NCBI GenBank assembly: GCA_964016885.1
Contig: OZ024742.1
Location: forward strand, 364,374,001 to 364,438,000
Length of the DNA stretch: 64,000 nt
Direction of reading: 5' to 3'
DNA from: Eledone cirrhosa
Lineage: Eukaryota
Position numbers and translations under genes: made by a program. This document shows positions 3,328 to 52,048 of the stretch, piece after piece (the first letter of the stretch is position 1; the number at the start of each line of letters is the position of its first letter). The notes under the pieces are model-generated. The model was not told where the DNA came from and did no database searches. It saw nothing but the letters and a program-made list of their open reading frames with translations.

Positions 3328-3518
3328 AACGAAGGAATTGTGGTAAGGAACCAGAGGGACCATAACGCACCAAAGTACTCAATACTTAGGGTAGTAGAGT
3401 GGGTAATAGGAGCAAGTATGACCCCGACGACAGAGCCCAAGCCGTTTCGACGGCTATTTCTGGACCAGAAATAGCGGTCGAAACGGCTTGAGCTCTCCCG
3501 TCGGGGTCATACTTGTTT
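3328..3518 (-). mobile_element. ~190 bp hairpin derivative of the family B PLE 3' end
   Basis: Matches 13816-13952; folds back at ~3464 (ttctggaccagaa). Confidence 0.85.
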
Positions 3519-4107
3519 CTCTCTCTCTCTCTCTCTCTATATATATATATATATATATATATATATATGAAAAAATGGGGAGAAGAATACTGCAGGTTGC
3601 ACATGGATAACATGTAATAAAATGAGTCCCTCATCAGTGATTTGCCGACGATCATAGATATTTCATTGCATTAAAAATCATATACCTCACGTCGGTGCAA
3701 TAATAACTAAATTAAGTTATTAGGACAATTAAAACGCGTAAAGCGAGTGAGACAAGTAAACAACAAAGAGGAGAGCTAACCGTAGAGAGGAAGAAAACAA
3801 GCTACATATTTATTCTGTTAGCATAAGCTAGGTGAATATATGAGCGCTTAGAAAAAAGACCTTTCGTGATGAATCCAAATGTGAGAAAGAAAGAAAATGT
3901 TTTCGTCGCGAACGGGTGAAGTGAGAAGGGGAGAAACAGTGAGTGAGTGAGTGGAAGTGTGAGGAAGAGTTAACTGACATGACGGAGGGGCGAAAGAAAG
4001 TAGGAATATATATATATATATTGAGTGGTTGAATAGTTCTAAGTTGGCGAGGAGCTGTCTCTTGTATGTTATAAAGTAATATTCACAAGAGACATTTTAT
4101 AGCGGGT

Positions 4108-5351
4108 CAGCCTGATTGTGTAGTCACTGTGTTTACTAATACAGCAGCCTGGTTGTGTAGTCACTGTGTTTACTGATACAGCAGTCTGGTTGTGTAGTCA
4201 CTGAGTTTACTGATACAGCAGCCTAGTTGTGTAGTCACTGTGTTTACTGATACAGCAGCCTGGTTGTGTACCACTGTGTTTACTGATACAGCAGCCTGGT
4301 TGTGTAGTCACTGTGTTTACTGATACAGCAGCCTGGTTGTGTAGTCACTGTGTTTACTAATACAGCAGCCTGGTTGTGTAGTCACTGTGTTTACTAATAC
4401 AGCAGTCTGGTTGTGTAGTCACTGTGTTTACTGATACAGTAGCCTGGTTGTGTAGTCACTGTGTTTACTAATACAGCAGCCTGGTTGTGTAGTCACTGTG
4501 TTTACTGATACAGTAGCCTGGTTGTGTAGTCACTGTGTTTACTGATACAGCAGCCTGGTTGTGCAGTCACTGTGTTTACGGATACAGCAGTCTAGTTGTG
4601 TAGTCACTGTGTTTACTGATACAGCAGCCTGGTTGTGTAGCACTGTGTTTACTAATACAGCAGTCTGGTTGTGTAGTCACTGAGTTTACTGATACAGCAG
4701 CCTAGTTGTGTAGTCACTGTGTTTACTGATACAGCAGCCTGGTTGTGTAGTCACTGTGTTTACTGATACAGCAGCCTGGTTGTGTACCACTGTGTTTACT
4801 GATACAGCAGCCTGGTTGTGTAGTCACTGTGTTTACTAATACTGCAGCCTGGTTATGTAGGCACTGTGTTTACTGATACAGCAGCCTGGTTGTGTAGTCA
4901 CTGTGTTTACTGATACAGCAGTCTGGTTGTGTAGTCACTGTGTTTACTGATACAGCAGCCTGGTTGTGTAGTCACTGTGTTTACTGATACAGCAGCCTGG
5001 TTGTGTACCACTGTGTTTACTGATACAGCAGCCTGGTTGTGTAGTCACTGTGTTTACTAATACAGCAGCCTGGTTGTGTAGTCACTGTGTTTACTAATAC
5101 TGCAGCCTGGTTATGTAGGCACTGTGTTTACTGATACAGCAGCCTGGTTGTGTAGTCACTGTGTTTACTGATACAGCAGCCTGGTTGTGTACCACTGTGT
5201 TTACTGATACAGCAGCCTGGTTGTGTACCACTGTGTTTACTAATACAGCAGCCTGGTTGTGTAGTCACTGTGTTTACTAATACTGCAGCCTGGTTATGTA
5301 GGCACTGTGTTTACTGATACAGCAGCCTGGTTGTGTAGTCACTGTGTTTAC
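4108..5351. repeat. 37-bp minisatellite, ~33 copies
   Basis: Unit CAGCAGCCTGGTTGTGTAGTCACTGTGTTTACTGATA, with some 35-36 bp variants; no spacers. Confidence 0.97.
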
Positions 5352-5385
5352 AGTGAAATATTGGGTAATTTTAGCATGAACTCAC

Positions 5386-5489
5386 ATTATATTGGCACTG
5401 ACCAGTTCGACAATGAACACTAACAGCCACAGCATCGCTAATATTAAAATATTTCTTGAAGTAATGTCCCTATATGTCGACATAGACAT
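5386..5489 (-). CDS. Candidate first coding exon of a host secreted or membrane protein (signal peptide)
   Basis: ACC-ATG context; encodes MSMSTYRDITSRNILILAMLWLLVFIVELVSANI; followed by a GTGAGT donor (5385-5380) in phase 2. Confidence 0.4.
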
Positions 5490-5648
5490 GGTTGACTGGT
5501 TAAGTAATTCGCTTTGCAGCCATGAAGTCCCTTGCTTGTTAGATATGCGAAGATCTTGGACAGATACCATTACAATTGTTTCGGGTTGACACAAGCATTG
5601 TGAGTGAAATTTTGTAACGGGAATCTGTTTGGGAGCCTACCGGAGGGA

Positions 5649-5990
5649 TTGTAGCTGTATACCAATCAAAGTTCCACCATATTTACATATAGAGGTAAGA
5701 TTTTACATATAGGGTACGGTATTTACATATAGGGGCACCATATTTACATATAGTGGTACAATATTTAAATATAGGCGTACAATATTTACATATAGGGGTA
5801 CAGTATTTACATATAGGTGTACGATAATTATATATAGGGGTGAGATATTTACATATACGGTACGGTATTTACATATAGGGGTAAGATATTTACATATAGG
5901 TGTACAATATTTATATATAGGGGTACGATATTGTAGCTGTATATCAATCAAAGTTCCACAATTGATACATATAAAGGTAAGATATTGTCG
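5649..5990. repeat. Degenerate 21-bp tandem repeat bracketed by a ~28 bp direct repeat
   Basis: Unit ~ATATTTACATATAGGGGTACA; 'ttgtagctgtatatcaatcaaagttccac' occurs at ~5649 and ~5931. Confidence 0.85.
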
Positions 5991-49472: not shown

Positions 49473-49668
49473 AATTGTTTCTACTTTTAGCACAAGGCCA
49501 GCAATTACTGCAGTGCATTACTGGTTCTTTATTTTATCGACCCCGTAAGGATGAAAAAACAAGTTAAACTCGGTGGGATTTGAACTCAGAACGTCAATAG
49601 CCATAACTCAATGCTACAAATCATGGTGCCCGACGCTCCACCGATACTGTCCAACGACCGCCATGATC
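49473..49668 (-). mobile_element. tRNA-derived SINE remnant
   Basis: 'tttatcgaccccgtaaggatgaaa...gatttgaactcagaacgt' (B box on the minus strand); homologous to 63273-63460. Confidence 0.7.
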
Positions 49669-49827
49669 TTAGACGCCATTCGCTTATTGATGGGGGGGGG
49701 GGGGCTTGTCAAATCGAACCGAGGAAACAATGTTTCCATTGGTCTTTCCAATTTCTAATACTATCTGTCGGTCGCAACTCCAGGTAGAAATATAATATAT
49801 ATAAGTAAAGAAAAAAGTAGAAACGGG

Positions 49828-50230
49828 TTCACTTAGTTCATATAGAATCCACTTGCCAAGCTTGGGCACGGTATGAATGATAATGGATAATTGGTATGAA
49901 TGATAATGGATGGTTGATGAGGCTGAATTAACTTCTTCTGCTGACTCAATAACAGCTTTATGGGGATTTCTTTCAGGAGGGTATTTTAGTTTATTACTAT
50001 TAAAAGACTGGGTGCTGAGATCAGAGACCATGTTCCAAGTCAAAATCTCCTTGTCCCATTTATTGAACTATCGTTGGCACTTAGGAACATTCAAAAACAA
50101 CTTTATCATATCATTTTCTCACATTTTATACAGTATTCGTAGCACTACCGCCTTCTTTGAACATGCAAAGTTTGACGATTCTTATGTCTTCTATGACTTC
50201 CAATTTCATGAAGAAATATTAAAGCAGCCA
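49828..50230 (-). mobile_element. Highly decayed mariner transposase fragment
   Basis: KLGKWILYELSE resembles the mariner WVPHEL motif. Confidence 0.5.
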
Positions 50231-51523
50231 TTTAAAACATACGTATTGTAACTTTGATGTCATATACACTCACACATATACATTGTTCTGAAACAGAATC
50301 CAGTAAACAGAAGGTATGAACCGATGGAAGGAAGCTCATGTGTACTGCAAAAAGATTTGGCTACTATTTCTAACAAGCTGACCTGTTACATTCTGGCTCC
50401 TTGAATTACATATGGCAGTCACGTGTATGTTTGGTGCAAAGACTTGCAAAATTACTTGACGTTTATCATGTCTCTGGCCTGCCCTCAATCCTTGCCTTTC
50501 TCTCTTCATAAGTGGGTATCAAACAATCAATGTCTTTATTAAATGATAAACTGGGATCTCTATATAATTCGCAAAAATACTCCTTAATATTTTAACGAAC
50601 CTAGAATCGGAATTCTTCAAAGATATCTTTTAACTCGATACAATGTCTCGTGGACGAAACTTCCTAAACTGTATCGAAAGGATATTATCAAGATTAATGG
50701 GTGTAAATCTATAATTTAATAAGTATTGTATTCTTATTGAGCAGAATATAGTAATTAACTTAGACGATCATGAAATCATATCAATCAACAGCCAATATTA
50801 CATTGATCAATTAGAAGTTATAAAGACTGGACACGGCATATTCTGGTACCAATTAATAGTTAAATTAGTTGTTGAATATACCACAAGAAGCTAATTAATG
50901 TTCATACATTATAATTTATAACACTCACAATAATGTGTGGGAAGCAGGAGCAACGACAGACACCAAAAGAGGTTTAATTGATTCCTAGTGATAGGTTGTG
51001 TTTATTACAATAATAATATTCTCGTGTCTCAGAGGACGTGTAAATACTTATCACTAACAGCGTCTATGGTTCATATTAATCAACGACCATATTTCACACA
51101 CACTTCTCCCAGACAAATGACTCTTCAAGCTGAGAGTTACTAATTAATTAATTAACCAACATACACTGCAATTATTGAACTGAGAGAATATTTTCTGACT
51201 TTCCTAACTAAACCTGAGATCATTTTACTATGTAACCACGAGGGCCATTGTACACGGATTATTGACACGGTGGTTAGAAGTTTCGGATCACTGCATTCTA
51301 AATTCGAATTCCGCCGAAGGCCAGTGTTCTTTACATCTATACGAGGAGGATTAAATGATGTCGCGCGCTAGTAATGGTTCATGTCCTTTACTAAATCCTT
51401 TTATCACTTTCGTCTCTCTCTCTCTCTCTCTCTCGCCCTCTCTCTCGCGCTCTCTCTCTCTCTCTCTCTCTATCTATCTCGCTCTCTTTATATATATATA
51501 TATACATGTATACATGATATTAA

Positions 51524-51832
51524 TTAAATGGAAACTATATTTATAAAACCATATTTATTCTATTATATATATTTCAAGGGTACCAAAACTTTGGTACGAT
51601 CTTAACGGTTCAAATTTTTCCTGGATACAGGAAAAACTTGAACCGTTAAGATCGTACGAAAGTTTTGGTACCCTTGAAATATATATAATAGAATAAATGT
51701 GGTTTTATAAATAGTTTCCATTTATTTAATATCATTGAATATTACACTCCAGAAAACTTGTCGAGTGCTTCAAATCAGTTATAAACATATCTATTTGTTG
51801 AATTACCAACAAATTAAATATCCCTTTTACTT
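51524..51832 (+). mobile_element. Fold-back family H-related element
   Basis: Arms ~51524-51623 and ~51628-51730 plus ~100 nt extension homologous to 42885-43035 (-). Confidence 0.87.
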
Positions 51833-51854
51833 ATATATATATATATATATATAT

Positions 51855-52048
51855 AACGAAGGAAATGTGGTAAGGAACCAAGTGGACCATAACGCACCAA
51901 CGTACTCAATACTTAGGGTAGTAGAGTGGGTAATAGGAACAAGTAAGACCCCGACGGCTGAGCTCAAGCCGTTTCGACGGCTAATTCTGGACTCAGAATT
52001 AGCCGTCGAAACGGTTTGAGCTCAGCCGTTGGGGTCTTACTTGTTCCT
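51855..52048 (-). mobile_element. ~195 bp hairpin derivative of family B
   Basis: Centre ttctggactcagaa (~51991); (TA)n on both sides. Confidence 0.88.

Follow-up and report, generated by a model that had tools for sequence, protein, structure and literature searches.

The stretch of DNA analyzed here, referred to below as the window, covers 64,000 nucleotides of Eledone cirrhosa (GenBank assembly GCA_964016885.1, contig OZ024742.1, positions 364,374,001 to 364,438,000 of the forward strand) and harbors a Penelope-like element (PLE) at 13816–18148, together with four inserts of about 190 bases, each made of two head-to-head arms, at 3328–3520, 23404–23598, 40951–41134, and 51855–52050. An earlier note on this DNA had recognized these hairpins and traced them to the hammerhead ribozyme (HHR) and tail region of the PLE, and both points stand, with 81–93% identity between hairpins and source; all four sit in (TA)n. 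Positions along the element (ref) are numbered on the antisense, or complementary DNA (cDNA), strand from the tail end of a young natural copy in locus L237. On this scale, site A is 1 and site B is 79, the HHR cleavage site lies at 98/99, stem II comprises a lower stem (122–129), an internal loop (130–134), and an upper helix (135–142), and the catalytic core spans about 172–185.

In each hairpin, a tailed arm that begins at site A faces a short arm that begins at site B. In the first, the tailed arm (3328–3465, minus strand, which is also the element sense) runs from A to ref 138 in HHR stem II, and the short arm (3466–3520, plus strand) runs from B, which here adjoins a (TC)n run, to ref 135. 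The second has its short arm first (23404–23459, minus strand, B to ref 135), followed by a tailed arm (23460–23598, plus strand) that reaches ref 139, the predicted transcription start (+1), with the junction GGACT-C-AG. In the third, the tailed arm (40951–41075, minus strand) stops early, at ref 125, while the short arm (41076–41134, plus strand) extends from B to ref 138, 13 nt beyond it, and so cannot be a copy of the tailed arm, barring later deletion. The fourth belongs to a subfamily recognized by the alleles ctaAtt, ggcTgag, and gtaAgac; its tailed arm (51855–51993, minus strand) runs from A to ref 139, again the predicted +1, and its short arm (51994–52050, plus strand) from B to ref 135, or to 134 if the C at the junction is a cap copy. 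The claim that all four turn at or near TCTGGAC in stem II holds for three of them, which turn in TCTGGAC(T), whereas at 40951 the long arm ends 13 nt earlier (…TTTCCACG) and the short arm reaches further (GTCCAG…). Likewise, the common TTCC|TA end of the short arms does not extend to the copy at 3328, which ends in (TC)n (TTGTTTC|TCTC).

The parent element, hereafter family B, consists of a main arm (13816–17408, minus strand), with its site-A end at 13816, a 3′ untranslated region with the HHR, and a pseudo-long terminal repeat (pLTR) at about 16950–17408, and of an inverted second arm (17409–18148, plus strand) that starts from an internal TA site at 18148. Its open reading frame (ORF) for a reverse transcriptase (RT) with a GIY-YIG endonuclease is broken (about 16857–14706) and shares 73–79% identity with the intact ORF at locus L237. 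The latter is a single frame of 719 amino acids with RT and C-terminal GIY-YIG (YRDD at 348, YIG at 606), RWR at 37, where R replaces the K of RWK, DKT at 117, a CxCX5C linker (CNCPDRSIC at 572), CxxC (CNLC at 670), and CxH (CKH at 698); no CCHH motif was seen by eye in its translation, and Pfam gave no hit on it. The element unit measures 3,117 nt, inserts into (TA)n, and carries an HHR in the pLTR. By the description given in PMC8557442, the motifs, the (TA)n target, and the HHR would fit the Hydra clade.

The 3′ copy of the ribozyme, a putative type I hammerhead with stems numbered by the usual convention, lies at 13893–14010 (minus strand), with a U3–A8 core UUGAUAA at 13998–13992, a cleavage triplet GUC ending at 13913, and a partly mutated stem I. 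It was assigned from sequence and folds: stem II appears in the fold, the z-scores are −0.39 and −2.11, and neither minimum free energy structure contains the full three-way junction; an Rfam search at the gathering score found no HHR. The U3–A8 core variant is among those reported in PMC4209133. Within stem II of the pLTR, a core promoter is predicted at 17089–17120 (minus strand), with an initiator (Inr)-like TTA(+1)GTC whose +1 is 17089 and a TATA-like box about 31 nt upstream (TACTTATT; in nine other copies TATTTAAA, TATTTATT, or TATTCAWA). Such a start would split the hammerhead of family B, so that only the 3′ ribozyme copy of a transcript would be complete.

The same architecture recurs throughout the 3.0 Gb of genome that we searched. 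At least 10,629 loci match the hairpin pattern with exact 14-nt anchors, against 0 for a reversed-pattern control, and strict ends number 28,696 for A and 25,758 for B. Among all fetched loci, 239 of 244 hairpins pair A with B, four pair A with A, and one pairs B with B. A position-sampled set, drawn from the first 23 Mb of contig 1, yields 187 arm-start rows, of which 113 are short two-arm inserts, 21 are long, and 53 have no called partner; the 113 comprise 110 A+B, one A+A, and two B+B rows that re-parse A+B inserts, and among the 53, inspection by eye shows some with a diverged partner and others running straight into (TA)n. The ends of the A+B hairpins are staggered by 78 nt rather than forming terminal inverted repeats. 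Long inserts are likewise A…B head-to-head: at L237, an A arm extending to 1,504 faces a B arm that covers the full unit plus 261 nt, with the whole ORF; at L314, the B arm reaches 2,187 and the A arm 151; at L226, the A arm reaches 2,398 and the B arm 404. In a few long inserts, another internal TA serves as the second start. The hairpins themselves stop short of the catalytic core, are inverted, and carry no TATA-like box.

Both kinds of arm tend to stop in one narrow zone. Of the 91 A arms that reach ref 132, 78 have stopped by 147, as have 90 of the 105 such B arms (about 86%; a 16-nt window), which corresponds to 0.11 stops per nt at ref 132–147 versus 0.001–0.008 elsewhere. These rates come from a gapped-alignment caller that over-extends some arms (spurious 143/143 and 145), which is why junction counts were taken from exact-match callers. 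Read-through of stem II is found in 5,952 arms. Run-off at the HHR cleavage site was considered and would be a minor class at best, since stops at ref 79–101 account for only 10 of 125 A arms and 3 of 124 B arms.

The stop zone coincides with a promoter-like pair. When compared with the TATA and Inr consensus, the sense-strand context of A139 reads TTAGTC, TCAGTC, or TCAGTA (TYAGTM) in nine of nine read-through copies, and in all nine a TATT(T/C)A… motif begins 29 or 31 nt upstream of it; A143 lies in TCATTY or TAATTY. A rule combining the two motifs matches 6 of 3,300 positions, both A139 copies among them. Moreover, among the 3,639 loci in which both arms reach 139, a non-native C stands just after the base copying A139 on both arms at 289 loci, versus 8 when T is taken as the control. 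One subfamily has GGACTG as its native sequence, and native GGACTC was seen by eye in 0 of 100 read-through arms among the matches listed; C is the inserted base after T139 in 7 of 11 cases and also follows 143 at several junctions among the matches listed. Since an extra G on the sense strand marks the capped 5′ ends of L1 inserts in the account of PMC11702581, the extra C would be the signature expected from copying an mRNA cap. Finally, the two arms do not end independently of each other at their 5′ sides: an arm of the 139+C type is paired with an arm reaching at least 142 at only 39 loci, versus about 1,265 expected from independent ends (classes of 289 and 1,384; the counts differ in their gap limits, 0–6 and 0–8). 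Both end classes occur within the same subfamilies (3:9, 3:10, and 10:5), so that differences between subfamilies fail to explain this correlation.

To these observations we would attach, with a probability of roughly 0.72, the following reading: two target-primed cDNAs, probably on one RNA, would run off the predicted capped 5′ end and join head-to-head. Cleavage of the two (TA)n strands by the GIY-YIG endonuclease would leave two 3′ ends, each of which would prime at a TAT site: one at B, where HHR stem I has its base, the other at A, which lies 78 nt farther toward the 3′ end. With the main transcript starting at A139 or A143 in stem II, the cap would be only about 139 nt away from A and 61 nt from B, and the RT would copy it as the extra C. 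When a single RNA serves both ends, the A-primed RT would displace the B-primed cDNA, and the two cDNA 3′ ends may then be joined by template jump or end-joining, with hardly any homology or none (0–4 nt of overlap) or with small trimming. Longer and full-length copies would require RNAs that begin upstream, by tandem read-through, and the hairpins, having no TATA-like box, would be dead by-products.

The most serious alternative, although we deem it unlikely, retains priming from both ends and dispenses with a start site: the RT would stall, or the RNA would be nicked, in the upper helix or loop of stem II. The earlier note, too, had taken the ribozyme helix as the site of RT stalling or snap-back. 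The alternative is consistent with the overlap, in the folds, between the stop zone and the internal loop, upper helix, and loop of stem II, with the spread of stops across about 12 nt, and with three hairpins of diverged family B relatives, the second hairpins at L080, L105, and L349 (GAGCTCCGGCCG in stem III), which turn in their own stem II region. But on its way to that zone the RT passes stem I, stem III, and the GC-rich lower part of stem II at the low background rate given above, and stalling predicts neither the C after an Inr-like A on both arms, nor a TATA-like box at −29/−31, nor the correlated ends.

Two other PLE families of the window also bear on this alternative. A family C hairpin at 30426–30860 (plus strand), with a tail of about 95 nt on one arm, has the start TATAAAT(−31)…TCA(+1)CT at its turn, 55 nt upstream of its hammerhead core; genome-wide, 142 family C hairpins turn at this start (pattern gap at most 14 nt), and by eye only 3 of 50 hairpins among the matches listed have an arm that reads at least 2 nt past +1. 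A family D hairpin at 615–1040 (plus strand), with a tail of about 30 nt on one arm, has CATAAAA(−31)…TCA(+1)GAT at its turn; 282 hairpins fit the pattern around this start and, among the matches listed, most turn at +1/+2. Some family C and D copies adjoin related PLE ORFs (L442; L472, L481, and L483), and an unambiguous G precedes +1 in a few of their junctions (L436, L449). The turn therefore tracks the promoter-like pair and not stem II: that the hairpins of family B turn in stem II is correct, and the ribozyme helix is probably not the reason, since families C and D turn at their own TATA/Inr, outside stem II.

It could also be that, as the earlier note had proposed, the second arm is copied from the first. 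A single cDNA, or an antisense RNA (PMC3846280), would then fold back and be copied into the second arm, and site B would mark the place at which the target captures the copied strand or the endonuclease cleaves it. Such snap-back would give a direct account of the shared haplotypes described below, the A+B pairing, and the shared 5′ ends; it has precedents in the snap-back after full-length cDNA synthesis obtained with R2 proteins (PMC11371274) and in the reading given to palindromic junctions of rotifer PLEs (PMC3846280), and it fits the position of the loop in the commonest junction, more often on the tailed arm. The arms themselves argue against it. From 77 hairpins we retained 55 clean junctions, leaving out 22 with inserts longer than 3 nt or mutated junctions, and noting that some 4-nt overlaps in this set are artefacts of pooled subfamily references: the A arm is longer in 24, the B arm in 23, and the two are equal in 8. 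At 504 loci, an arm stopping near 130–143 is joined to a tail piece too short to overlap with it; among 30 of these that were examined, 24 start at B in (TA)n according to a script, and of the other six, four look like eroded B starts and two are A+A. At L237, as seen above, it is the B arm that carries the whole ORF, facing an A arm of only 1.5 kb. A hairpin loop requires 3 nt or more, and 30 of the 77 hairpins have at most two unpaired central bases. Lastly, junctions such as GGACTC|GAGTCC and GGACTC-W-GAGTCC require two separate cDNA ends, with a base added to each. On these grounds, snap-back is largely refuted, and we hold it for improbable as a source of these inserts; from the products, that is, from B arms that do not overlap the A arm or outreach it, we infer that the second arm was primed independently from the opposite target end.

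The two arms of a hairpin share one source haplotype. The arms disagree at the ctaA/Ttt site in 89 of 7,684 hairpins, where random pairing would yield about 3,380 such cases, and in 20 discordant loci inspected by eye, three of which form one tandem array and one of which is uninformative, two subfamily haplotypes are paired in 0 of 19 informative cases. Full haplotypes are concordant in 66 of 80 hairpins; shuffling gives 12.8, and 24 at most. For rare alleles, 37 mirrored instances compare with an expectation of 2.3. Arms of 44–57 nt offer too few sites for a tree, and relatedness was therefore judged from haplotype concordance and genome-wide counts. Concordance alone is no proof that one RNA served both arms, as asynchronous activity of subfamilies gives it too. 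What the earlier note had described as three mirrored variants private to the 51855 copy proved to be subfamily alleles of the parent Hydra-type PLE: all three occur in both arms of 27 of the 29 other best genomic hits to this copy, a similarity-selected sample read by eye, and the remaining two have a one-base deletion at one variant site. Genome-wide, ctaAtt is found in both arms of 5,127 hairpins and continues into native GGACTA in 12,686 matches, ORF-bearing copies included. The aaaaagt that the earlier note had seen mirrored in the 40950 copy is the commonest family allele, present in both arms of 81 of 239 hairpins. When contigs from four runs of unrecorded kind are aligned to the 51855 copy, loose (TA)n ends appear at B, along with ends that read on into native sequence; such contigs are uninformative on starts or levels and were not used as evidence.

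Mirrored rare alleles may also be expected if longer inverted inserts had been trimmed after insertion and their arms homogenized by gene conversion, or if the hairpins were assembly chimeras, and palindromes are indeed unstable. We regard this as very improbable: the youngest haplotype, with 0.26 differences per 44 nt, already has hairpin junctions; within a haplotype, an arm is about as distant from its partner as from other copies (1.81 vs. 1.91; 0.25 vs. 0.25), which leaves no sign of homogenization; deletion would not produce the same added C; and older arms have diverged from each other, unlike those of a sequencing chimera.

Junctions are diverse and mirror-symmetric. The 55 clean position-sampled hairpins contain 47 different junctions, with 18 in the 19 hairpins of the youngest haplotype and 14 of 15 and 15 of 15 in two others. 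No subfamily lacks the commonest junction, which is found in either mirror orientation: the tailed arm bears the loop at 674 loci and the short arm at 416. All 20 loci, among 25 fetched, to which the parser assigned this junction are A+B. The weakest alternative, a non-autonomous family resembling miniature inverted-repeat transposable elements (MITEs) or short interspersed elements, in which hairpin masters are copied whole, could appeal to the best hits to the 51855 copy, which are 96–98% identical across 194 bp and mostly share one junction, but this sharing reflects search selection, and the junction diversity of the youngest haplotype, the recurrence of one junction across subfamilies and orientations, and the want of a TATA-like box in the hairpins refute master-copying for the bulk of them and leave it the least probable of all. 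The earlier proposal that hairpins arise anew at each insertion, with arms of one source haplotype, is thus upheld.

Some inserts depart from the common form. In the GTACTG subfamily (ref 136–141; L226, L314), a GTAC palindrome near the start often joins the arms (CTGTACAG junctions), and at L178, L183, L267, and L311, 12–18 A or T lie at or beside the junction after GGACT(AAA), which may reflect slippage or tailing at the cDNA end. At L467, a family B arm ending at ref 133 stands head-to-head with a family D arm, either as a possible chimera of two RNAs from different families or as a nested insertion. Rare A+A inserts have a tail on both arms (L007, L073, L081, L088, L212). At L128/L176, L208, L268, and L340, one arm omits HHR stem III exactly between two CGACGGC direct repeats, which resembles RT slippage across the stem.

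Several observations weigh against the proposed run-off of two target-primed cDNAs at a capped end. The capped start at A139 or A143 inside stem II is itself read from DNA alone, the TATA-like boxes of family B are imperfect, and the TATA+Inr rule was framed after family B had been seen and missed the TCACTA of family C; the promoter of Penelope in Drosophila virilis is moreover described as TATA-less (PMC2377424). Many arms end 1–7 nt before +1 (peaks at 133, 135, and 138) without the extra C, so that the model needs trimming or early stops. The model leaves the prevalence of G as the untemplated base after C138 (7 of 11) unaccounted for; a modified +1 A may have been misread there. Most extra-C junctions of families C and D are ambiguous, C being the native −1 base in both. 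The two mirror orientations of the commonest junction are unequal (674:416), and a choice of start site fixed per source locus could mimic the use of one RNA. Furthermore, not every insert has two arms, since some arms run straight into (TA)n, and the long element of the window itself has a second start other than B.

Further head-to-head inverted inserts in (TA)n are seen at 39918–40490, 51538–51830, 18271–18685, and 19035–19438; they are probably further examples of this architecture from other PLE families. One arm alone is extended in the first two at least, and the insert at 39918 has a CTGATGA hammerhead core. Fragments of Hydra-like PLE ORFs, with 37–51% identity to the family B protein, lie at 1452–2258, 9647–12036, 44537–47422, 47925–48398, and 19712–19996, and 42965–47422 contains a 1.6-kb inverted repeat at 99% identity. 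On the minus strand, fragments at 59411–62988 include APAGTGKT, presumably a helicase motif of the PIF1 type, and a stretch that may be read as Helitron-like Rep; 22156–22722 is presumably a fragment of an RT of the long interspersed element type, and 42011–42505 resembles what we assume to be the C-terminal region of another PLE clade. Tandem arrays occupy 4108–5351 (units of about 74 bp) and 56138–57109 (about 88 bp).

With regard to known systems, the canonical PLE insertion is described as an inverted 5′-truncated copy with a tail at one end (PMC8557442, PMC3846280, PMC2377424), and the inserts reported here resemble it in their head-to-head arms, one-end tail, microsatellite targets, and palindromic inverted junctions. 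The family B tail measures 78 nt rather than 30–40, and the minimal form of the insert is the commonest product. In these sources, the tail is attributed to endonuclease resolution and the palindromes to self-priming, possibly of antisense RNA, whereas the present data point to two separately primed cDNAs of sense RNA that would end at a capped start. The origin of tandem and inverted one-tailed PLE insertions is named an open question in PMC8557442. As for the element itself, it shares with the Hydra clade, as described in PMC8557442, a C-terminal GIY-YIG, DKT, CxCX5C, CxxC, CxH, the want of CCHH, the HHR, and (TA)n targets, and it differs by a unit of 3.1 kb instead of generally less than 3 kb, by RWR instead of RWK, and by its U3–A8 HHR core. 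The hairpins are short, high-copy, and non-coding, and PLE-derived or hairpin-shaped, like non-LTR retrozymes (as described in bioRxiv 10.64898/2026.07.22.740005) and MITEs, respectively; they have neither the tandem HHR arrays nor a complete ribozyme, the catalytic core being absent, and, unlike MITEs, they have no masters and end at the staggered sites A and B. In practice, hairpins of this kind would enter annotations as MITEs, yet they are likely dead by-products; PLE promoters would be marked by the positions at which they turn.

The closest biochemical counterpart is the Poseidon element PAc of Anolis, for which in vitro target-primed reverse transcription cuts and extends both DNA strands, two internal RT start sites bound the tail, a dimer is predicted, the template is RNA with an uncleaved HHR, and product length tracks the RNA 5′ end (PMC11167929). 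Family B shares the two internal start sites bounding a tail and, in our proposal, the priming on two strands. The main text of PMC11167929 reports no strand preference, A+B pairing, cap copy, or head-to-head joining, and the PAc start sites are not homologous to the target, whereas both A and B of family B present TAT to a (TA)n target; beyond first-strand synthesis, the pathway described in that paper is unvalidated. In the open-access literature, older subscription papers and supplements aside, we found no description of cap run-off or of fixed A+B pairing in PLEs. We would give even odds to a general rule for endonuclease-bearing PLEs, in which a dimeric ribonucleoprotein primes both ends of the break at two fixed sites on one capped RNA and the cDNAs are fused at the cap. 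If true, this one rule would explain why PLEs in general have an inverted copy, a tail on one side only, and palindromes at their junctions, and hairpin turns would locate PLE start sites to the exact base with nothing more than a genome sequence.

Lastly, in the twin priming of L1, a second RT event from the opposite DNA end gives rise to an inverted piece (PMC11702581), and the likeness extends to the extra base that marks the cap, which in L1 is found on full-length products. As described there, twin priming is a minority event at variable internal sites, and its pieces barely overlap. In family B, by contrast, the second site is fixed and a two-armed product is what usually results, the two cDNAs typically covering one shared segment up to the 5′ end; an arm overlap of about 55–60 nt is the rule and non-overlap a minority (504 vs. 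10,629 loci, counted with different patterns). While the inverted one-tailed architecture was already known for PLEs, two-ended cap run-off would represent a new form of twin priming, and the tens of thousands of junctions available here serve to separate the published idea of self-priming from that of priming at two ends.

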